A stretch of DNA of 41,779 nucleotides from a virus (Duplodnaviria > Caudoviricetes), in the IMG/VR virus record IMGVR_UViG_3300032219_000342, positions 1 through 41,779 of that record; one strand, 5' to 3'. The translations under genes and the position numbers were made by a program. Positions 7,023 through 30,474 of the stretch are shown one piece after another (position 1 is the stretch's first letter; every line of letters starts with the position of its first letter). The notes below the pieces were generated by a model. It searched no databases and was not told the origin of the DNA. It saw only the letters and a program-made list of their open reading frames with translations.

Positions 7023-8120
7023 ATGGAAATCAAAGTAAGATCACTAGATGGGTTTGAACAAAAGAGTGTTCAAGAAGTAGAAAAAGAATTGCTTGAAAAG
7101 CATGAAATGGAGATCAATAGTGAACTGCAAGTTGGGCTGGATACTTCTAGTATTGACAATGCAGCTCAGAACAGTCAGCCTGAAGAGGAGGAATTATCTG
7201 AAGAAAAAGTTCTTTCATATATTGGGAAAAGATATAATAAGCAAATCAATTCGTTTGATGATTTGATGGAACAAAGACAGAGCAATGAAGAATTGCCTGA
7301 GGATGTTGCAGCTTATTTGAATTATAAGAAGGATACTGGAAGAGGTTTCGAAGATTTCCTAAAGCTTAGGAAGGACTACGATACTATGGATCAGACAAAA
7401 CTTCTTAAAGAGTACCTTGTAGATACACAGCAAAATTTAGATGATGAGGACATTGAAGTCTTAATGGAGGATTACACCTACGATGAGGACCTAGATGATG
7501 AGTCAAAGATTAAGCATGTAAAGATTGCAAGAAAGAAAGCTATTGCCGAGGCTAAAAAACACTTCAACAATCAGAAGGAGAAATATAAGCTTCCACTTGA
7601 GTCAAGTGGAACAGGCTTGTCTTCAGAAGAGAAAGAAGAATTTCAAGCTTACCGCCAATATACACAAGAGTCAAAGACGATAGAAGAGGAAAGTAATCGG
7701 AAGCGTAAATGGTTCGACCAAAAGACAGATGAGGTTTTTAGTAAAGACTTTAAAGGATTTGAGTTCGACATTAACGATAAGAAGATTTTATTTGCTCCGG
7801 CATCTGGTTCAGAATTAAAGAGTGCTCAGTCAAGTCCGTTGAACTTTGTTAATAAGTTCTTGGATGAGAGTGGTCTAATTAAGGATGCATCTGGATACCA
7901 TAAGTCTTTGTCTATCGCAATGAATCCTGAAAAGTTTGCCAAGTTCTTTTATGAGCAGGGGCAAGCGGATGCTACCGATGACGTTTTACGAAAGACCAAA
8001 AATATAAATATGTCTGAGCGTAGAGCTCCTGAGGTTGTTAATAAGGGTGGGATGCAGGTGAAGGCGGTTACGCCAGACTCTGGAAGGAGTCTAAAAATCC
8101 GCAGTATTAAAAAAATATAA
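7023..8120 (+). CDS. Capsid scaffolding protein
   Basis: Very acidic, helical 365 aa with basic C-terminus, directly upstream of MCP. Confidence 0.75.
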   Translation: MEIKVRSLDGFEQKSVQEVEKELLEKHEMEINSELQVGLDTSSIDNAAQNSQPEEEELSEEKVLSYIGKRYNKQINSFDDLMEQRQSNEELPEDVAAYLNYKKDTGRGFEDFLKLRKDYDTMDQTKLLKEYLVDTQQNLDDEDIEVLMEDYTYDEDLDDESKIKHVKIARKKAIAEAKKHFNNQKEKYKLPLESSGTGLSSEEKEEFQAYRQYTQESKTIEEESNRKRKWFDQKTDEVFSKDFKGFEFDINDKKILFAPASGSELKSAQSSPLNFVNKFLDESGLIKDASGYHKSLSIAMNPEKFAKFFYEQGQADATDDVLRKTKNINMSERRAPEVVNKGGMQVKAVTPDSGRSLKIRSIKKI

Positions 8121-9615: not shown

Positions 9616-9933
9616 ATGGCTAAGAAAAAAAATGGAGGCGATCCAATTAAAGGACCAAAAACACTTCCTCAGGTTACAGTAACTGCTTCTAGAATTGTTG
9701 ACAAACCAATAAAGAAACCTATTAATAGAACATTAATGGAGGTTGATCTTCCTAAAGGATATAAAATGTCAATTGATACTACAAATATGAACAAGCCAGA
9801 TCAAAACACCTATAATTATATGGTTAAGGATCCAACTGGAAAAGTTACTAGTAAGGGAAACATAGCTAGTGCCGAAGGTAAGTTTGGAGCTAGACAAGTA
9901 GTTAATAAGTTTAAGGCAAATAAAGGTAAATAA
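9616..9933 (+). CDS. Lys-rich basic small protein
   Basis: 105 aa, K/G/P-rich termini, A-rich start context. Confidence 0.7.
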   Translation: MAKKKNGGDPIKGPKTLPQVTVTASRIVDKPIKKPINRTLMEVDLPKGYKMSIDTTNMNKPDQNTYNYMVKDPTGKVTSKGNIASAEGKFGARQVVNKFKANKGK

Positions 9934-9945
9934 ATATAAAAAGAT

Positions 9946-10350
9946 ATGGCTATTGGAAAAGGACCTGGTCCTAAGAAAAAAGATCAACCAAAATCAAAAA
10001 TTGGAGGTGGAATTGGTAAAACAATCGCCGCTCCAGGATACAAAATGGCTATTACTCCTAAAAAGGGTGGTTCAAGCGATCAACTTGTAAGTGTCGGAAA
10101 ATTTTCAAACAATGTACAAAGCGGTATATATACTCCTCAACCAGTTGCACCAGCTACTAAAGTTGCTGTTGCTCCTGCTAAAAAAGTTGATAAGAGATAT
10201 GGAAAAGGATTGACTGCTACTGGCAAGGTATTAAGAAAAGTTAAAGAGGCTGTAGATCCTGGAAATTATTCGTTTAAATTAGGTAAAGGAGGAGGAGGCG
10301 GAGGTAAAACTTGTGCCGCTTATTCCGGTTATCCGAATAGACGTAAATAA
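9946..10350 (+). CDS. Lys/Gly/Pro-rich basic low-complexity protein
   Basis: 134 aa, strongly basic and likely disordered. Confidence 0.7.
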   Translation: MAIGKGPGPKKKDQPKSKIGGGIGKTIAAPGYKMAITPKKGGSSDQLVSVGKFSNNVQSGIYTPQPVAPATKVAVAPAKKVDKRYGKGLTATGKVLRKVKEAVDPGNYSFKLGKGGGGGGKTCAAYSGYPNRRK

Positions 10351-17351: not shown

Positions 17352-18569
17352 ATGGCAACATCAGGAACATTTTATTTAGATGCACCATCACTTAGTACTG
17401 CTACGGTGGTATACTCAAATGCTGCGTTAACAACTGTAGCTGCTAATGGATTTTACTCTGATGGATCTATTGTGAGACAGCAAGCATCAGGAGCATTGTT
17501 GCCTCAACAATCTTGCCCTGCATGTGCAGTTGCATGTGGAGGAACTATAAGTGCCAATGGTACACAGGGTGTATATTATTTAAATACAAATCTTGGTAGT
17601 CCTACTGGAGCAATAATTGTTAGGTTTAATCCTACATCTGTGCCTGAGGGAATTAAAGCTGTTTATAATAGTATTGTTTATAATGGATTGTCATCCCCAT
17701 CATTTGGATGGAGGCAAGGTACGGCAGGATTGTCTACTTATCTTGGGTCATTAGCTGATGCTTGTAGTAGTGGTATAGTTGCAGGTTCTCCTTATACACT
17801 TAATAAATTCCAATATAACGGAACAACATTTGCTCCATTAGGAACTACAGAATCTGTAACTATAGCCGCAGGTCAGATGCAACTTACTGCTTCAGCTCCA
17901 GGCAATAGCGTAATGGTTATACCTAAGACAGCGGCATCTCCATCTATTCTAAACCTTACATTTGTTGGGCCCTGTACTGGTGCTGTATTTAGCATTTCAG
18001 TATCATGTCCAGCTGCTCTCCCATCATTCGCTTCTAGCACAGTGAATGGTAGTACTGCATTGGCATGTGCTGACGCTATTGATCAGACATACTACGTTGC
18101 TTATGTTAATGGGGGTGCTGGTGTTCTGGGGTTATATGACTTAGTATTTAGTGATGCTAATGGACAGTTTAAACTTGCGGCAGGATACTATAAGACCACT
18201 GCTGCTGGAGCAAACAACTGGTTTCAAGTGGATGCTAATGGTGTTATTATTGCATTCGGTAGTTGTACATCTAATCAATTCATAGTATATTTTGATTCGA
18301 CTACAAGTCCTAATACTTACGGATGGGGAAGTTCTGCTGCTGCTTGTGCAGGGACTGGTACACCTTTAACAGTGTACATTACTGGAACAGCATCTTCTTT
18401 ATTTGAGGCGGTAGTAACATTGGGTAAAGTACTATACACAAACGTAGGACTTACCACACCTTTAAATGGCAACAATACACACTATAAGACTGTGTCGGCT
18501 CCTGCTTTAGGAGAGACATTATTAATTGATGCAGTTGGAGTAACTTCAAGTTGGGGAGGACCTTGTTAA
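17352..18569 (+). CDS. Virion protein with repeated small Cys-containing beta domains
   Basis: A/G/S/T-rich 405 aa with three YS/TN/D...(N/A)GxY...C units. Confidence 0.7.
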   Translation: MATSGTFYLDAPSLSTATVVYSNAALTTVAANGFYSDGSIVRQQASGALLPQQSCPACAVACGGTISANGTQGVYYLNTNLGSPTGAIIVRFNPTSVPEGIKAVYNSIVYNGLSSPSFGWRQGTAGLSTYLGSLADACSSGIVAGSPYTLNKFQYNGTTFAPLGTTESVTIAAGQMQLTASAPGNSVMVIPKTAASPSILNLTFVGPCTGAVFSISVSCPAALPSFASSTVNGSTALACADAIDQTYYVAYVNGGAGVLGLYDLVFSDANGQFKLAAGYYKTTAAGANNWFQVDANGVIIAFGSCTSNQFIVYFDSTTSPNTYGWGSSAAACAGTGTPLTVYITGTASSLFEAVVTLGKVLYTNVGLTTPLNGNNTHYKTVSAPALGETLLIDAVGVTSSWGGPC

Positions 18570-22161: not shown

Positions 22162-25100
22162 ATGGAAGAAGAACTATTAAAAGAATATGTGTCAACATAT
22201 TTAAATCCGAAGTATAATAGTGATTGGGATGTGGTTAATTCAAAGTTTCCTGAGTTATCTGGAGTTGACAAGGGACTATTAAAAGAGTACGTTGCAACAT
22301 ATTTAAATCCAAAATATAATAGTGATTGGGATGTGGTTAATTCAAAGTTCCCTGAACTATTCCCAGCAGGCCAGACTGCTGCCGAGCAACCTATAGCCGA
22401 GCAGCAAAAAAAAAACAGAAGTTCGGTATCACCATTTGTGGATGGTGGTTCGGAGCTTACAAAGTTTGATCCACGTACTGGTCAGGTTGTACAGGAGACT
22501 CCTGCGTTCACTAAGCCAAAAGAGAGAGACTTTAGTGGACTAGAAGTTAAAGTACAAGATGAAAAGATATTAACTAAGCAGCCTAGAGTAGAGAGACCTA
22601 TAGTTTCTAGTGAGTCAACTAAGACTGATCCTGATCAAATTGATTTTGATGGTAAGCTTGCGAAACAGAAAGTTTCTGCTCCAATGTCTTATTCAAATAT
22701 TTTCGCAAAAACAATAGCAGATCTTCCATCAGACTTAGCTGAAACCTGGTCTGTTGCATCAGCATTTATAGAAAGACAACTTGGTAAAGCTGGTGTCCCA
22801 GGAGCTAATCCTAATTTAACAGCTAAGGATATATATTTTTACAATGTAAGTGATGATTGGAGAAAATACACAGATGAAGTTTTTCCTACTAATCAAGAGG
22901 ATAGATCTACATTTTTAGGAGGAGTTGTTTCTGGACTAGGACAGGCAGTTCCTATGGTTATGTCTGGAGGAATATCAGCTGTATCCAAGGGGAAAGCGGC
23001 TATGGATATAGCCAAGGCTGCATTAAGTACTGGAACAAAACTTACTCCATTTATAAAAATGGGCAAGGATCTGGCAAAGCAAGCAGCATCTCCCTCTGGT
23101 TTAATAGGTGGATCTCAAATGTCTTCATCAATGTATAGACAAGCTATAGATTCTGGGGCAACTGAAGATCAGGCGCAGCAATACGCTATTGAAAACTTTT
23201 TTGTTGGAACAGTGGTAGAGTCACTCCCAATACAGTCAATGTTCTCAAGAATATTGAAGAAGGAACCTACTGCAAATATTTTAAGAATATTAAAAGAAGG
23301 TGGTGTTGGTGCCGGTGAAGAGTTCACTACCGAGATGTGGCAAGCCACTTATGAGAACTGGTCTGCTCAAAGAATATATGACTTCAATAGAGAAATGCTA
23401 GATGGAGTTGGTGAGGCTGGAGCAGTTGGTGGAACGGTTGGCTTTATCTTAAACACAGCACTGGCTGCATTGGTAGGTAGAAGGGCTAGAGTAAAGACTA
23501 AGGAGGAGGAAGTTATTTTAGATAAGTCAATAGATGAAGTTAAGTCAAAAATAAATACTGTAAATACAAACAATGAGAACATATCATCGGTTGCTGAAGA
23601 ACTAGATTCTATAGAGCCAATTGTTTTAAATTACGGAGACTCTAAATACTTTTTTGCTAGAGATAAATCTGGCAGAATGGAATTAGCTGATGAACCTATG
23701 CTTGAAGACCAAGCAAAGTCAATGTCTAATATGCTTGGCAAAGTTTATAAAGGACTTGAGTTTTCTATTGAAGAGGTGGCATCTAATGATCCATACACTC
23801 CAGTAAAATATAATGTTATTGCTAAAGAAAAAATAAACGAACAACAAAATGCCATTCAAGAGCAAGCAGCAGGTCAAGTACCTGTACAGCCAGGAGCCAC
23901 AGTTAGCCAAGAAGTGGAGCAAGGAGTACCCCAAGTAGAACCTCAAGTCACTGCCGAAGCGGGTGTCCAAGAAGAAATAAATGAGGAGGATATAGCCCTA
24001 AGCGGATTGAGTGATGGGTTTAGGGCAGTTACTCGTAACTCTTTTGATGTAAGGTCTGATAAAGAAGTTATGGATAATATAACTAAGAGAAAATCTTTTG
24101 CTACTTCTGTTACTAAAAATGGTAAAAAATATGTAGTAGTAGGTCTAAGACTAAATGAAGATGTTGGAGCTACTACATCAGGAAGAGATGGGTATTCTTT
24201 TGCTACAATAGAAGACAATGGAAATTTACCTGCTAACACTGTAGATGTTCTTACTCAAAAAGCTATATCTAATATTTCATCTGTTTACCCTAATATAAAG
24301 AATCCTACTGTTGATTTATTTAGACCAATAGAAGTTCAAGAAGTATCTCCTACTCAGCAGCCAGAGATAGATGCTATTGAAGCTCAGAGAAAACAAGCTC
24401 TCGAAGCAAATAAGGGTGGACTAAACAAGCCTTATTACTTAGGGGATACAGAGGGTCCAACATTAGGAGAGTTCATCAATCAAGAGTATGACGCTAAGAT
24501 AAATGCCCTGAGAGCCAAGGCTACTACACCACAAGTACAGGAAGTAACTCCACAACAAGTAGAGAAACAAAGAAAGGACTTGGATATGGAGGTTAAGGCT
24601 CTTGAAGATTTGCTTTCTGATCCTAATGAAGAACCTTTGTTTAAGAAGTCAGATAACGATACCAAGTTTGGTGAGTCAGCAGATGTTGTTGAAGATGTAG
24701 TACGTCAGATGAATGATTTGCCATCTGGCAATGTGACTACAACTATTACTCCTAAGCCACAAAAACCAATTGATATAGCTGACCTAGAGTCAAGAGCAGA
24801 TGTTCCTGTGAAGCGAACTACATTTGATGTTATCAAAGGTATACCTGCGGTGTTCTCTATATCTGACCAACTTAGAATTGGTAATGTGACTAACCCTAAT
24901 ACTGGTAATGTAATCGATAGACTATTTGGTGGTCTAGGATTTGGTTTCACTAAAGGACATGAAGGATTTGCATGGGCTAACACTACAAAAGATGAGGCCC
25001 AGAATCTTGTGAATAGAGCCGTGTCTGTCTACAATAATAACAAAGCATTGTTTGATGATTGGTGGGCTAAGAATCCAGAGTACAATGGACTAGTTCCATT

Positions 25101-28100
25101 GAACATAGCCAAGATGGCTGAAGGATCTATCATGTCAAACGAAGCATTGTATCGTGTTATTAAAGATAACTTTGCCTCATTCCCTAAGAAGAATAAAGTA
25201 GATGCTCTTAACTATCTTACAAATAATAGAATACCATCTATTATTGATTCATTAAATAAGAGTTTAAAAAATCCAAACCTAGCAAAGAACGCTAGGAAGA
25301 GTGTTGAGAAAAGGATAAAAGCTTTAACTAGCATACAGACAAAAATAAAGGATGGTAAGTTAAAGTCTGTAGACCAGTTGCTAGACCCTGAGTTTTATGG
25401 ATCACTTTCATTACCTGTAAGGGCAGAACTAATAAGCCAACTAACAATTGGTACTCCTAATAAACCAGGAGAACAAAAAGCTTCTGGCTTACCTGGAAAG
25501 AATACAGTACCACGAGCTCTACTTGGAATTGATCAAGAAGCTTCTGTATCTGCTAAGTCTATTGGACAAGCTAACCTAAATAAGGTAAGTCTTTCAAATG
25601 CGGCAGAGATTATTACTGAGCCGGCTATGAAAGATATTGAGCCTCGTCAGATAATTGCTATCTATGGAATAGATGTATTAAATCCAGGAGTAAAAGATAC
25701 AGTACACCCTAACTACAAGTTTGGTGTTAATGGTAGACCAATTGGTGTGCTTGAGAATAGCGTATCAATACAAGAGGCTTATCCTTTTGCTTACACAAAT
25801 ATACTTGAGTCTCTTATAGCTCAAGAAGAAAAGAGTGGAGAAGAATTGAAGGCGGCTCCTATTGACTCATTAATAAATGAGAAGATACCTGTTGGTATTG
25901 GGTTACCTAACCTTGAGTTTATTGGGGCTATTTCTCAGGGAGTAATGAGCAATGCTCAAAAGCTTTCTGCTTGGATAAACAAATCATTCCCTAGTGTAAT
26001 AATGTCTACTGATGCAGAGACATTTGCTAATGTACTTAAGTCTGATGGCGTAAGGGTTCAGCTAAAGGGTGATGAAGTAGTGTACGGTGTAACTGTTGAT
26101 GGAGACATCTATATAAATCCAGATGTACACAATAGTGATTCAGCATTATTTAACACAACTATTCACGAGTTCGGTCACGTATGGTTGAACTTCTTAGAGA
26201 CAACAGCTGAGGGTAAGTCTTTACTTAATCGTGGAATTAATCTTGTAAAGAAGACTGGTGAATATCAGGATCAACTTAAGAAGTTTAATGGAAATCAAAC
26301 TAAGGCTGCTAACGAGGCACTTGCTATATTGATAGGCAACAGAGGAGAGACCATTGTCAATGCCTCATTGAAAAGCAAGTTTCAGGAATGGTTACTTGGA
26401 GTGTGGAAGTATGTAAAGGATAAGTTCAAATTATCTGGTGACCTAACCCCACAAGAAATTCAAGATTTAACTCTTGATCAGTTCTTGGGTACAGCTATTG
26501 CTGATTTGTTTAGTGGTAAAGCATTGCCTGTTGGTGAGATTCAACTAAAGAAATTAAAGAACCCGGAGGCAGCATTCAGTAAGTCAGACTCAATAGATAG
26601 CATAGTTCAGAAAGGTAGGGCTAATGGATTCTCTGAAGAATCAATTAAGATTGTATTAGATAAGAGAGGATTCACTGAGCAGGCTATCAATGAAGCATTG
26701 GGCAAGCAGACACCTGCCGCTAAGAAGGTTGAGGTAACTGAGAAGCTACCTGCTAATTATGAGCGAATGATTGGTCAGCTTGAGGGTGTGATTGAGAAGT
26801 CATTGAAGAAGCGTGGTACTAGCCAAGAGACAGCCATGCAGAATGCCATCAACTACCTACAGGGTACGAAGGTATACGAGGAGGCTACTGACGTTCAGCG
26901 CGAGGCTATGTTCCGTGATGTACGCAAGCGATTCAAGAAGCGTGAGAAGTCTGCACCTACAGCTAAGAGAGTACTAGGTCAGAAGAAAGACGTTGTAACA
27001 ATCACTGTTGATTTGGCTAAGGAGAGAGATAGAATCATTAAGGAACAGATAAAGCAGGCTAAAGAAATCACTGGTGACCTTAATGATAAGAGAGCAGCAT
27101 TGGCTAATTCAATACGTTTGTTTGAAGATGGAGGAGTTATAACGACTGCTCAAACTAAGACCATAGTAAACAGAATTAGCAAAGTCAATCTAAATAATCC
27201 TATCATGGTAGATAGGTTACTTGCATACATTGAGAAGGTATTTGATAATGCTAACTATGCAGCTGACATGACCGAGCTAAGAAAGCTACAACGTCAGGCA
27301 AGAACCAAGAGGCATACATCAATGAAGGACTTTGTTGATAGGTTTACTTATATTAATCCAGAGATTATACCACTTGATAGAATACAAGACTACAAGGAAG
27401 CACTTGACTTCTTGAATAACCTAACTCCTTCTTATGCTAGAATGAATGAGATGCTTCCTGAGATTGAATCTTATCAGGTGTCTGAAGAGTTTGATGCTGC
27501 TAAGACTATGGATAGTCTTATGAGTAAGTATGAAAACATAGCATTGAATCAGGTTGGTAGTGTAGAGGATTATGTTAATCTAATAAAGGACATAAACTCC
27601 TTCAAGAGAAAGGCATTCCAGTTACTACAGAACGAAGCTATTATTCAGAAGGATTATGATGACCTAATCAATATGGTTGGAAAGGATCAAGCTGCTGTAG
27701 AGAAGAGATATGAAAAAGAAATCGCTCAGAGAAAGAAGGACTTAATCGCTGAGATAAAGAAGCAGCGACCAAAGACTAATCCTGAATTCACTAAGGAAGA
27801 GAATGATTTAATCAGGGAATACCTAGAGCTTAGCGATGCTGACCTTCAGAGTCTATCACCTGAGGACTTGTTTGTACTAAATGATTTGCTTGAGAACGTA
27901 AGCAATGGAGAGATTGACTACTATAGATTTAAAAATGTAGTTTCAAAAGCAGCCAATAACAAGGCTGGTGTTGAGGTTGGTAAGCAGTTAAAAGGATCTA
28001 AGTTAAGTCTTGGGTCAGCAGAATTGAGAAAGAAAATGGCTCAGTTTGAAAGCTCATTCTGGGAAGGGCTTCTTGGTTTAGGTAGAGCTACATCAGGACC

Positions 28101-30474
28101 ACTACAGAAGTTTATTATCTCCCCTTTCAATAGAGCAATTGGGTCTTATGAGAAATTTATCAGAGAGGGATTCAATGATTTCTTAAAGCTTAAGAAGAAG
28201 TATAAGATTGATGACAAGGGTATGAACAAGATTGGTATGCTAACCACATACCTTCAAGAGTACATGGCTCAGTTTGACCCTAAGAACAAAGGTGTTAAGG
28301 ATATCGGTAAGCGTGATTGGTTCAAGGAAATCTTAGCTACCGAAACCATGAGAGATGACTACTCCCCTGAAGAGCTTAAGATTATTGAAGAGATTCATAA
28401 GAGTCTACCTAAAGATAATGATGGTAATGTAAATCCAAAAGCAGTATATGATAGCTACATATCTAACGATGGCAATTTCTTTAACAAGAATGAGAAGGAT
28501 TTCTTTGATGCAATTCTAGAATGGAAGAAGAATAACTCAACATCAAAGCAGAAGGCAGCCAATGAGATGAGTGGCAATGCATTTAAGGAGATTCCTTTTC
28601 ACATGCTTAGATCAAGATACTCTGGCCAGACTTCACAGATTACCCCATCAACATCTGGTGATAATGGTATGGTAAGAATCAAAGCTGGGACTGGTAAGGA
28701 GAGAATTAGTGAGGCTGTTGGTGCAATCAACACAGACTTTGAAAAGCTATTTATAAAAGGACTAGAGCAGACTGGAAGAGATTACTTCTTGTCTAAGACA
28801 CTGAAGGATATAAATAACGTGTTGGCATCTGCTAAGAAAGAACTTAATGGAGACAAAGATCCTCTGGTTAAGGCAATATCTTATACGCTATCTGATGCAT
28901 TGGCTTACGAGTTCAGTGATACGGCTAGTCAGAACATATTGAAGAGATTGGTTCAGGCAAGAGCTGCCATGACATTGTTCGATCCTATCAGAGCAGGCGT
29001 TGAATTTACATCAACACTACTATCATTTGGTTTAAGAGCTAGAACATTATCTGGATACAAGAATTTATTCGGTAGTCAGGGAGAGATGAAAAATCTACTT
29101 GAGTTCACGGATAGCCCACTAAGACTACGTCAGAATATCAATAATGCAATTGATATCAATGATGGAAGGATAGAACCACAGGGTATGCTTATGAAGTGGA
29201 CCACATTCTTATCTGGTCTTCCAGAAAGAACAATGATGGTAACCTCGTGGATGCCAACATTCACTAGTGAGTTTCAGAATATCACGAAGGAGAAGTTCGA
29301 CATGAAGAAGTTTAATGATAGCGAAGCATACAGAGAGAAGTATGGTAAGGCAATCAAAGAAGCTTCTGCTGTAGCTGATGCTCAGACTGAGAAGATTATT
29401 GGTCCAACTACAAAGGCAGGACAGAGAAGAGACATTGTAATTGCTCCAGGCAAAACTGTTGGCAGAGACACGGTGTCTGGTCAGATCCTTGGATTTTTTA
29501 GTAACTATCCTTATAGAGAAATAACTGAATTTGTAAATGGATTCAGGGAAGCAGGAGAGGTATTGAAAAAGGGTGATACAGTAGAAGCAATCAGTCAGTT
29601 GCAAAAGCCACTGGGTATTGCATTGAATGTGGCTACTTATGGATTCTTATCATCAGTAGTATACGCCTCCAGATTAATTCTTCTTGGAGACGAGGATGAA
29701 GAGGAGAGAGGTAACAAATTGCTGGAGGAGTTGATGACTGCTAAAGGATTCATTGAGGAGACAGCAGCAAATGCAGCAGCATTAGCAGCAAGTAAGTACG
29801 CAGGGGGAGGTAGAGCTATTCTACAAGTACTAGGTACACTTGGAATGATGCTGACTGACAATGAGGAAACAAAGGCTACAATTAAAAAGATGCTAAAGGG
29901 AAGTGTCTACGTAGATCCTCTACCTACTCAGAAGTTAAGTGGATATGGCACCGCTGATAAAGTAAATACAGCAATACTAAAATACATCCCCCAGTTCGTG
30001 GTGCTTAGTAATATAATTATAGATACTATTGGATTGGGTAATGAATTAAAAGCCATAATTGACACGGTAGAAAAGAAAGGTGTGGAAGCATTGACAGAAG
30101 ATGAGAAGCTAAAAGTACTAGCATTGAGTGTCGTATTTACTGGAACTCAATTGTTACTAAACTATAGAGGGACATCCTTGCCATCTTACAACAACTTGAA
30201 AGCTGGTATGAAGAAGGTTAAGGAAGAGGCTGGAGTTGCTGATATATCTGCTGGGAAGGTTCCTGCTAAAAAGAAATCATCTGGAGGTGGAAGCAGCAGA
30301 GGTGGAGGAATGAACAAGACAGACATGAAGAAATATAAACCTGAGTTATATAATCAGATGTATGGACCTGGATCTGCCGGATATGAAGTAGAGCAGCAGG
30401 TAAAGGAATTTGAAAAGGAACAGAGAGAGTTTAAAAAGAAGATGAAGGATCAGATATATGGGGGCAAGGACTAA
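22162..30474 (+). CDS. Giant internal virion/ejection (polyvalent) protein with zincin metallopeptidase motif
   Basis: 2770 aa. HEFGH at 26164-26178 with a downstream NEALA; G/A-rich hydrophobic segments near aa 250-440 and in the C-terminal region. Confidence 0.8.
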   Translation: MEEELLKEYVSTYLNPKYNSDWDVVNSKFPELSGVDKGLLKEYVATYLNPKYNSDWDVVNSKFPELFPAGQTAAEQPIAEQQKKNRSSVSPFVDGGSELTKFDPRTGQVVQETPAFTKPKERDFSGLEVKVQDEKILTKQPRVERPIVSSESTKTDPDQIDFDGKLAKQKVSAPMSYSNIFAKTIADLPSDLAETWSVASAFIERQLGKAGVPGANPNLTAKDIYFYNVSDDWRKYTDEVFPTNQEDRSTFLGGVVSGLGQAVPMVMSGGISAVSKGKAAMDIAKAALSTGTKLTPFIKMGKDLAKQAASPSGLIGGSQMSSSMYRQAIDSGATEDQAQQYAIENFFVGTVVESLPIQSMFSRILKKEPTANILRILKEGGVGAGEEFTTEMWQATYENWSAQRIYDFNREMLDGVGEAGAVGGTVGFILNTALAALVGRRARVKTKEEEVILDKSIDEVKSKINTVNTNNENISSVAEELDSIEPIVLNYGDSKYFFARDKSGRMELADEPMLEDQAKSMSNMLGKVYKGLEFSIEEVASNDPYTPVKYNVIAKEKINEQQNAIQEQAAGQVPVQPGATVSQEVEQGVPQVEPQVTAEAGVQEEINEEDIALSGLSDGFRAVTRNSFDVRSDKEVMDNITKRKSFATSVTKNGKKYVVVGLRLNEDVGATTSGRDGYSFATIEDNGNLPANTVDVLTQKAISNISSVYPNIKNPTVDLFRPIEVQEVSPTQQPEIDAIEAQRKQALEANKGGLNKPYYLGDTEGPTLGEFINQEYDAKINALRAKATTPQVQEVTPQQVEKQRKDLDMEVKALEDLLSDPNEEPLFKKSDNDTKFGESADVVEDVVRQMNDLPSGNVTTTITPKPQKPIDIADLESRADVPVKRTTFDVIKGIPAVFSISDQLRIGNVTNPNTGNVIDRLFGGLGFGFTKGHEGFAWANTTKDEAQNLVNRAVSVYNNNKALFDDWWAKNPEYNGLVPLNIAKMAEGSIMSNEALYRVIKDNFASFPKKNKVDALNYLTNNRIPSIIDSLNKSLKNPNLAKNARKSVEKRIKALTSIQTKIKDGKLKSVDQLLDPEFYGSLSLPVRAELISQLTIGTPNKPGEQKASGLPGKNTVPRALLGIDQEASVSAKSIGQANLNKVSLSNAAEIITEPAMKDIEPRQIIAIYGIDVLNPGVKDTVHPNYKFGVNGRPIGVLENSVSIQEAYPFAYTNILESLIAQEEKSGEELKAAPIDSLINEKIPVGIGLPNLEFIGAISQGVMSNAQKLSAWINKSFPSVIMSTDAETFANVLKSDGVRVQLKGDEVVYGVTVDGDIYINPDVHNSDSALFNTTIHEFGHVWLNFLETTAEGKSLLNRGINLVKKTGEYQDQLKKFNGNQTKAANEALAILIGNRGETIVNASLKSKFQEWLLGVWKYVKDKFKLSGDLTPQEIQDLTLDQFLGTAIADLFSGKALPVGEIQLKKLKNPEAAFSKSDSIDSIVQKGRANGFSEESIKIVLDKRGFTEQAINEALGKQTPAAKKVEVTEKLPANYERMIGQLEGVIEKSLKKRGTSQETAMQNAINYLQGTKVYEEATDVQREAMFRDVRKRFKKREKSAPTAKRVLGQKKDVVTITVDLAKERDRIIKEQIKQAKEITGDLNDKRAALANSIRLFEDGGVITTAQTKTIVNRISKVNLNNPIMVDRLLAYIEKVFDNANYAADMTELRKLQRQARTKRHTSMKDFVDRFTYINPEIIPLDRIQDYKEALDFLNNLTPSYARMNEMLPEIESYQVSEEFDAAKTMDSLMSKYENIALNQVGSVEDYVNLIKDINSFKRKAFQLLQNEAIIQKDYDDLINMVGKDQAAVEKRYEKEIAQRKKDLIAEIKKQRPKTNPEFTKEENDLIREYLELSDADLQSLSPEDLFVLNDLLENVSNGEIDYYRFKNVVSKAANNKAGVEVGKQLKGSKLSLGSAELRKKMAQFESSFWEGLLGLGRATSGPLQKFIISPFNRAIGSYEKFIREGFNDFLKLKKKYKIDDKGMNKIGMLTTYLQEYMAQFDPKNKGVKDIGKRDWFKEILATETMRDDYSPEELKIIEEIHKSLPKDNDGNVNPKAVYDSYISNDGNFFNKNEKDFFDAILEWKKNNSTSKQKAANEMSGNAFKEIPFHMLRSRYSGQTSQITPSTSGDNGMVRIKAGTGKERISEAVGAINTDFEKLFIKGLEQTGRDYFLSKTLKDINNVLASAKKELNGDKDPLVKAISYTLSDALAYEFSDTASQNILKRLVQARAAMTLFDPIRAGVEFTSTLLSFGLRARTLSGYKNLFGSQGEMKNLLEFTDSPLRLRQNINNAIDINDGRIEPQGMLMKWTTFLSGLPERTMMVTSWMPTFTSEFQNITKEKFDMKKFNDSEAYREKYGKAIKEASAVADAQTEKIIGPTTKAGQRRDIVIAPGKTVGRDTVSGQILGFFSNYPYREITEFVNGFREAGEVLKKGDTVEAISQLQKPLGIALNVATYGFLSSVVYASRLILLGDEDEEERGNKLLEELMTAKGFIEETAANAAALAASKYAGGGRAILQVLGTLGMMLTDNEETKATIKKMLKGSVYVDPLPTQKLSGYGTADKVNTAILKYIPQFVVLSNIIIDTIGLGNELKAIIDTVEKKGVEALTEDEKLKVLALSVVFTGTQLLLNYRGTSLPSYNNLKAGMKKVKEEAGVADISAGKVPAKKKSSGGGSSRGGGMNKTDMKKYKPELYNQMYGPGSAGYEVEQQVKEFEKEQREFKKKMKDQIYGGKD
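22174..22359 (+). repeat. Two-copy tandem repeat, 102-bp period (LLKEYVxTYLNPKYNSDWDVVNSKFPEL)
   Basis: Copies start at 22174 and 22276; differences are mostly synonymous. Confidence 0.95.
22410..22456 (+). other. Candidate -1 programmed frameshift signal (A_AAA_AAC + stem-loop)
   Basis: A10 tract 22406-22415, in-frame heptamer 22410-22416, hairpin TTCGGTATCACCAT-TTGTGG-ATGGTGGTTCGGA starting about 5 nt later. Confidence 0.6.
23849..23980 (+). CDS. Nested small basic protein in the +1 frame of the giant gene (TAG at 23936-23938; TAA at 23978-23980 if read through)
   Basis: MPFKSKQQVKYLYSQEPQLAKKWSKEYPK*NLKSLPKRVSKKK with A-rich leader AAAAAATAAACGAACAACAAA-ATG. Confidence 0.65.

Follow-up and report, generated by a model that had tools for sequence, protein, structure and literature searches.

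The closest described architecture to the one reported here is that of the lambda spanin genes Rz and Rz1. According to a survey of spanins (PMC6139136), Rz1 is a small gene embedded completely within a larger one; it is read in the +1 frame and overlies a linker of the host protein that is genetically flexible. In the same survey, no spanin family was found to have embedded as well as separated or overlapped members; the extension of a neighbouring gene through loss of its stop codon was proposed as a route for spanins, with no family in which it had been observed. Another kind of nesting is viral overprinting, for example gene E within gene D of phiX174. As treated in PMC8227390, such genes overlap on the same strand, one of the frames is under low constraint, and the nested frame is usually new and has no remote homologues. 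So far, nested phage genes have mostly been either fixed pairs, like Rz/Rz1, or young overprinted frames.

The small gene described here, which starts at position 23849 and runs in the +1 frame within a giant phage gene, shares features with both kinds: it lies wholly inside a larger gene on the same strand, over a linker of low constraint. Unlike Rz1, it has neither a lipoprotein signal nor a lysis role, its host gene is not a fixed partner, and its family is found free-standing, fused and embedded in unrelated hosts. The architecture is that of an Rz1-type embedded gene, but the product is not a spanin. An Rz1-type o-spanin was rejected in view of a peptide with no cysteine and no hydrophobic leader, a host gene of 2770 aa and no family match. 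In contrast to overprinted frames, the nested frame has homologues in thousands of clusters, and a gene overprinted de novo was likewise rejected, given 4,129 clusters and free-standing members in distant phages.

The Phage Genome and the Giant Host Gene

The window, i.e., the whole stretch of 41,779 nucleotides that was analysed, is part of a phage genome estimated by CheckV to be 69% complete. Its genes run in the order terminase, portal, scaffold-like gene, capsid, crAss-type muzzle and, last, the 2770-aa gene. Among cultured phages, comparison of the capsid protein puts Panino (55%), Elemovirus (48%) and Callevirus (41%) closest, so that a flavobacterium is the likely host. A TAG-recoded phage (code 15), in which TAG would be read as Gln throughout, was considered and rejected: under table 11 the long genes have open frames, and TAG terminates the portal gene. 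The scaffold-like gene (7023..8120, + strand), named from its position between the portal and major capsid genes and having no family match, carries no nested copy in the window; its sister-clade homologue is one of the host genes discussed below. Directly 3′ of the capsid gene are two free-standing ORFs with Lys-rich starts (9616-9933 and 9946-10350), which have no PHROG match and are missing at the equivalent place in Elemo.

The giant host gene (22162..30474, + strand) is the final gene of the virion operon, and its product contains an HExxH motif at residue 1335. It is syntenic with Elemo gp21 and phi38:1 gp101, both annotated "structural protein", and a crAss-muzzle-like gene (crAss_MUZ, E 2.8e-9) is located upstream of it. 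The product is likely a virion cargo protein; the putative label "ejection protein" is derived from gene order alone. Compared with the cargo proteins of the crassvirus phiCrAss001, as described in PMC10172136, it is alike in its large size and in its place downstream of the muzzle gene; the resemblance is positional only, and a family search with the giant protein itself returned zero family matches. Near the start of the gene, at 22173-22355, there is a tandem duplication of ~81 nt with 91% identity that repeats a motif of ~30 aa.

The Nested Reading Frame and Its Leader

In the + strand, the ATG at 23849 opens 29 codons that end at a TAG (23936-23938), followed by 13 more codons and a TAA (23978-23980), all in the +1 frame of ORF 22162-30474. 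The window allele as written (23849..23938) thus comprises 29 aa, which form the conserved two-helix core. The stretch 23939..23980 (+ strand) holds the Lys-rich tail and the normal stop TAA of the 43-aa allele, and it is untranslated in the window allele unless read through. In the host frame, the segment 23848..23979 (+ strand; residues 563-606) is an acidic Q/E/P/V/G linker with a net charge of -7, as opposed to +11 for the 43-aa peptide. The third-position GC of the nested frame is 0.88 vs. 0.31 for the giant gene. With a profile built exclusively from 14 free-standing phage genes, the nested frame scores E=1.2e-16; of the window's 2221 six-frame segments, the second best reaches E=1.6. 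When a generic filter for basic, A-leadered, out-of-frame ORFs was applied to the 11 genes of at least 300 aa in the window, this ORF turned out to be the sole one to pass. The predicted structure (pLDDT 75) has helices at residues 6-15 and 17-26, and a homodimer prediction score of 0.01 weighs neither way.

Upstream of the ATG is an A-rich, G-poor leader (23824..23848, + strand), which also codes in the host frame and is predicted to be an SD-less initiation region of the Bacteroidota type. Initiation in Flavobacterium is favoured by A at -3, -6, -12 and -13, as stated in PMC6847099. The window leader has A at all four positions and, scored with a matrix derived from 237 ORF starts, comes second of the giant gene's 119 out-of-frame ATGs, in agreement with the initial annotation, which had likened it to the leaders of real gene starts. 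The 85 nested leaders, which as those of related copies are not independent of each other, have A frequencies of 0.85/0.72/0.73/0.80 at -3/-6/-12/-13 vs. 0.34-0.38 in 4566 control ATGs, and the scaffold-clade nested leaders 0.93/0.94/0.86/0.88. Only 54% of nested leaders lie above the control 95th percentile, compared to 86% of ordinary starts. As a sequence match, a translation initiation signal is present at the nested ATG. A sigma-70 scan for an own promoter stayed at chance level and no Bacteroidota-type motif was found nearby; translation from the late polycistronic mRNA is therefore assumed, with ribosomes probably initiating internally at the ATG of the small gene.

A further candidate nested ORF of 40 aa was noticed in Elemo gp21 (L144:7987-8106, codon 882), upstream of the copy of the present family. 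It is basic and has an A leader with four of the four positions; it has no PHROG match, and nothing alike is found among the loci collected here.

Retention and Selection in Relatives

To avoid circularity, 64 loci were fetched through an acetyltransferase-like gene 4.4 kb upstream. The nested ORF is present in 39 of them, always starting from ATG and always at least 40 aa long, at 541-1323 host codons from the upstream stop. Of the 25 misses, 24 are loci read for <5 kb downstream, and where at least 7.4 kb is available, the ORF is kept in 33 of 34 loci. The contig L084 ends short of the homologous region and does not represent a loss. An earlier query with the host frame had given 31 loci, 30 of which show the ORF by pattern, the 31st being a variant. 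In whole records, a nested match is found in 28 of 42, as a single copy each time. Nine of 12 near-complete relatives contain a copy and three have none detectable; for this reason the nested gene is not considered essential. Beneath the ATG, all 39 loci have xAT as the host codon, although xAC accounts for 129 of the 421 D/N/Y codons of the window's giant gene. In 4/4 public runs, contigs of other phages begin matching the window at 23849 (loose ends), and the summed depth peaks in the bin of 23849 (3008 vs. ~30 beside it in run X4).

In the giant-gene clade (34 distinct loci, codons 2-15), changes that are silent only in the small frame number 46, or 5.56 per site, against 21, or 1.76 per site, that are silent in the host frame alone (p=8e-6; a ratio of ~3:1). 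These counts are approximate, since they come from a spanning tree and not from a phylogeny, and the loci were entered via a profile of the small frame. The acetyltransferase-like gene, used as a control, shows the reversed direction, 1.75 vs. 10.3. In the scaffold clade (94 distinct sequences, codons 14-26), the corresponding values are 13.3 and 2.3 per site for changes silent in the small and the host frame, respectively. In divergent subtypes (Cys-pair, MPVRS, MPIKS) the core is preserved despite changed host residues, and more generally host residues vary at sites where nested residues are fixed. A comparison of 85% vs. 61% identity over 104 sequences is partly circular, 78 of the 104 having been filtered by the peptide pattern, and for this reason it is not relied on.

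Judged from these substitution patterns, purifying selection is acting on the nested frame, and in two host genes. The proposal of the initial annotation, that a small basic gene lies in the +1 frame at this ATG, is borne out by its retention in relatives, by selection on its frame rather than on the host linker, and by the match to the free-standing profile; the apparent linker does behave as the shadow of a real protein. The ORF at 23849, with its own start and stop wholly inside an ORF of another frame, appears to be a functional nested gene, and in the clade a real translated gene is very probable.

The TAG at Codon 30

At codon 30 (23936..23938, + strand), a TAG stands in place of the CAG (Gln) found in nearly all relatives and changes Ala to Val in the host frame. 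Since TAG is a real stop in this genome, where it ends the portal gene and three other ORFs, the window allele as written is 29 aa long. The 43 aa given for the peptide in the initial annotation hold for the normal allele with CAG at codon 30 (L001/L080), not for the window allele. The L080 contig is 99.96% identical to the window over 12,888 nt, with five differences, one of them at 23936, where L080 has C. The other four cluster in a 54-nt stretch (window 17769-17822) inside gene 17352-18569, which may reflect local diversification or recombination.

At 23936, every covering contig in 4/4 public runs has C, as far as contigs, which drop rare variants, can tell. A scan of metagenome contigs, possibly omitting the window's own records, gave 0 matches with TAG at codon 30 vs. 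101 with CAG. Because the near-identical contig, the run contigs and the metagenome matches all read C, the TAG is regarded as a rare variant, being either a recent mutation or an assembly error. All 107 distinct viral alleles are intact, with lengths of 41-60 aa, and the host frame is open around all 107 (118 loci, 37/64 parts scanned). The L008/L031 lineage has a second TAG at the same codon 30. Among 104 nested copies, 44 end in TAG, of which two are the codon-30 alleles; a tolerance of stops restricted to codon 30 would rest on two events, which is too weak to claim. According to the structural model, the 29-aa allele would still form both predicted helices but lack the basic tail. At L730:3001, a scaffold-nested copy is cut short after 22 aa and is likely a pseudogene allele.

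A Widespread Family of Small Proteins

The stand-alone homologues that the initial annotation had proposed for the peptide do exist. At E<=1e-3, 4,129 clusters (50% identity) match the family. Its members are free-standing phage genes, N-terminal parts of polyproteins, or copies nested in one of several hosts. The motif is N-terminal in 148 of the 150 best representatives: it begins at residue 1 in 138 and at residue 3 in two, and is directly behind an internal Met in eight. Members are found in phages of Flavobacterium, Streptomyces, Synechococcus and Prochlorococcus, whereas 185,579 cellular genomes yielded only 39 family loci, nearly all in MAG contigs. Free-standing copies of cultured phages are annotated in FlowerPower, as gp48, and in 023Pt_psg01; those of S-CBS2, P-RSP2 and C75C1 (L226:7001, L228:6001, L230:6001) are unannotated in GenBank. 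DUF6321 is carried by 11 of 59 long members scanned, and directly behind the module a KxA or xES motif, a pattern picked post hoc, is present in 42 of 56 long members vs. 20.5 in shuffles.

Neighbours of the free-standing copies (37 hand-picked of 129 listed) include, among their matches, five portals, one head-tail adaptor and one terminase; several small basic proteins of DUF6321-like PHROG groups, three lysozyme-like genes and one ribonucleotide reductase are found as well. The 43-aa allele (L001) shows a weak match to phrog_1375 over the two-helix core (E 0.012), six other members reach E values of 4.5e-5 to 5e-3, and free-standing members match more strongly; the window peptide read with X has no phrog_1375 match at E<=0.01. 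Nothing meaningful was obtained from Pfam and NCBIfam for 28 members. Sequence matches of the family in PDB proved to be beta-propeller repeat artefacts, and Barnyard gp9 has none below E=1 among PDB sequences. Foldseek found no match in PDB for the predicted fold. Structure comparison with VIA-align gave a best Z of 2.7, and for the model with pLDDT 75 no structural match to a known DNA-binding fold (HTH, RHH and similar) goes beyond that value. BFVD returned uncharacterised proteins only (best E 0.03), and ESM Atlas unnamed clusters, with DUF3008 at 0.86 as a lead only.

Barnyard gp9 and Emalyn gp2 score 18-22 bits on the family profiles (0/1000 shuffles as high). They form a distant branch, are basic and lie in head modules. 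Patience gp10 reaches 3.3-6.6 bits only and is linked mainly through Barnyard gp9. Unlike the nested family, these three are free-standing, do not start with MP and are richer in Arg; the actinophage genes probably belong to phrog_1375. In PMC4324244, Patience gp10 is reported as expressed, with seven stringent peptides: one from particles, four at 30 min and two at 2.5 h. Our literature search, in which subscription journals and bioRxiv supplements were sparsely covered, found no description of this family or its nesting; the one phage mention of "MPFKS" turned out to be unrelated.

Nesting in Several Host Genes

Nested copies are found in the giant gene, in the scaffold-like gene of a sister clade and in LPD23 and LPD38 proteins, i.e., in virion-operon or polyvalent proteins. 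In 68 records of Elemo, cultured phages of Flavobacterium, the region with the nested copy is annotated "structural protein" and the small gene is unannotated; in NC_055852.1 the small ORF begins at 54224, within gp21. A pattern scan, with a pattern biased to nested codon use (120 loci, 8/64 parts scanned), gave 96 nested copies among 111 distinct matches; in 90 of the 96, the host protein is similar by BLAST to the scaffold-like protein of the window. No nested copy is present in the 80 scaffold loci nearest to the window's own. One genome (G024) has a scaffold-nested copy together with a complete giant gene that carries no second copy. Eighteen of the 39 cellular-genome loci are nested, including one in an LPD23 protein and one in an LPD38 protein; the latter host has 62% GC and no BLAST match to the giant proteins.

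Over 30 residues, one scaffold copy (L223) and the Elemo giant-gene copy share 97% identity. A single nested clade was rejected in a tree of 50 peptides (p-AU 0.0045; 38 columns, unrooted), from which the contig-edge artefacts L642 and L398 were left out; L544, also an artefact, was not among the rows. The tree and the likeness of L223 make repeated embedding of the small gene, or its exchange between hosts, likely. Nested copies are nearly free of T-ending codons (third-position T 0.03 vs. 0.29 in free-standing copies), which is why the host frame stays open; free-standing copies have stops in the would-be host frame in 35 of 36 cases. Read one base earlier, Lys codons would give Gln, Glu or Lys, so that the small gene could fit low-constraint acidic regions once T-ending codons are purged. 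The distribution suggests that the small gene is the older frame and the host linker derived. Embedding may have occurred either by a neighbouring gene extending over the small gene or by recombination that takes the small gene in.

In a single contig (L427:301-639), the module is fused in frame to the scaffold-like body and the original host frame stops, which may reflect true de-nesting or a frameshift introduced during assembly. Also in the +1 frame of the giant gene, at L680:5623-5763 (G010) and in L092 near 15427, there is a second basic small ORF that is unrelated to the first and has two database homologues and a weak phrog_38434 match. G010 contains the second ORF only; in L092 it is found along with the MPFKS-type gene, at a different site. 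Replacement at the same site by this second family was not confirmed, given the other site and the co-occurrence in L092.

Possible Function and Competing Explanations

The best explanation of the data is a conserved nested small gene that encodes a basic two-helix peptide of ~43 residues, associated with the head and binding DNA; we give it a probability of about 0.55. Granted a real translated gene, the odds of a head-associated nucleic-acid-binding role are slightly better than even. The stable, Lys-rich peptide would be made during head assembly, enter the phage head and bind DNA there, serving in charge neutralisation or compaction, and the same bases would give the giant protein an acidic, likely flexible linker. 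In polyproteins, the module may be cut free at the KxA or xES motif that follows it. DNA is proposed as the ligand because of the +11 charge, the tie to head operons and the spread across phages of unrelated hosts. Points against this explanation are a window allele without the basic tail, some free-standing copies located beside lysis genes or ribonucleotide reductase and, against a head role, the origin of six of the seven Patience gp10 peptides from infected cells.

Two other functions can be considered. The module may be a prohead-loading tag or a head-assembly cofactor that binds capsid, portal or scaffold instead of DNA, leads polyprotein cargo in and is then cut off. The N-terminal place of the motif in 148/150 representatives would suit this, as would DUF6321 in 11/59 long members and the post hoc KxA/xES excess (42/56 vs. 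20.5); nevertheless, the same motif is shared by phages whose groups and hosts are unrelated, the short free forms lack any cargo, and in Barnyard gp9 and Emalyn gp2 the motif stands behind a basic leader, so that we consider such a role unlikely. It also seems rather improbable that the product acts in the infected cell, on RNA, ribosomes, the nucleoid or in counter-defence, whether made late or delivered with the cargo. The gene is dispensable in three of 12 near-complete genomes, Patience gp10 peptides come mostly from infected cells, and the small basic size would suit an accessory factor, but the tie to head and virion operons is strong, and a host range across phyla would call for a very conserved target.

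Both readings without an independent gene product appear highly improbable. Ribosomal frameshifting into the +1 frame would give the N-terminal part of the giant protein a basic tail, and the in-frame fusion in L427, possibly an assembly error, could be cited for it. This is at odds with the invariant ATG (39/39), with in-frame stops 0-27 codons upstream at varying places, with the initiation features of the leader and with free-standing members that start at the same Met. As for a non-functional ORF, be it the shadow of a conserved host linker or the fossil of a captured gene, the TAG of the window and the second TAG at the same codon in L008/L031 would agree with it; however, the host frame is the less conserved one, 107/107 distinct alleles are intact, and the Cys-pair, MPVRS and MPIKS subtypes keep the core while host residues change.

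Implications

The nested family appears to be old, very common and able to move between free-standing, fused and nested states. Since all three states are present, the route from separate to embedded genes, only hypothesised in the spanin survey, becomes amenable to study within one family. In many contigs of aquatic phages, and in those Elemo records that contain it, the small gene has escaped annotation. With an Elemo phage and its host, Flavobacterium sp. BAL314, in culture, the expression and function of the family can be tested directly.

A broader reading is possible, if rather doubtful: small basic head peptides may be portable nested cassettes that lodge repeatedly in the +1 frame where prohead-bound proteins (scaffold, giant cargo, LPD) are acidic and disordered, move between these hosts and occur several per gene. 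The overlap could even have a function of its own, the basic peptide being paired with a linker of opposite charge that the same bases encode. If this is true, many of the "Q/E-rich linkers" in large phage proteins would reflect genes that annotation has missed.
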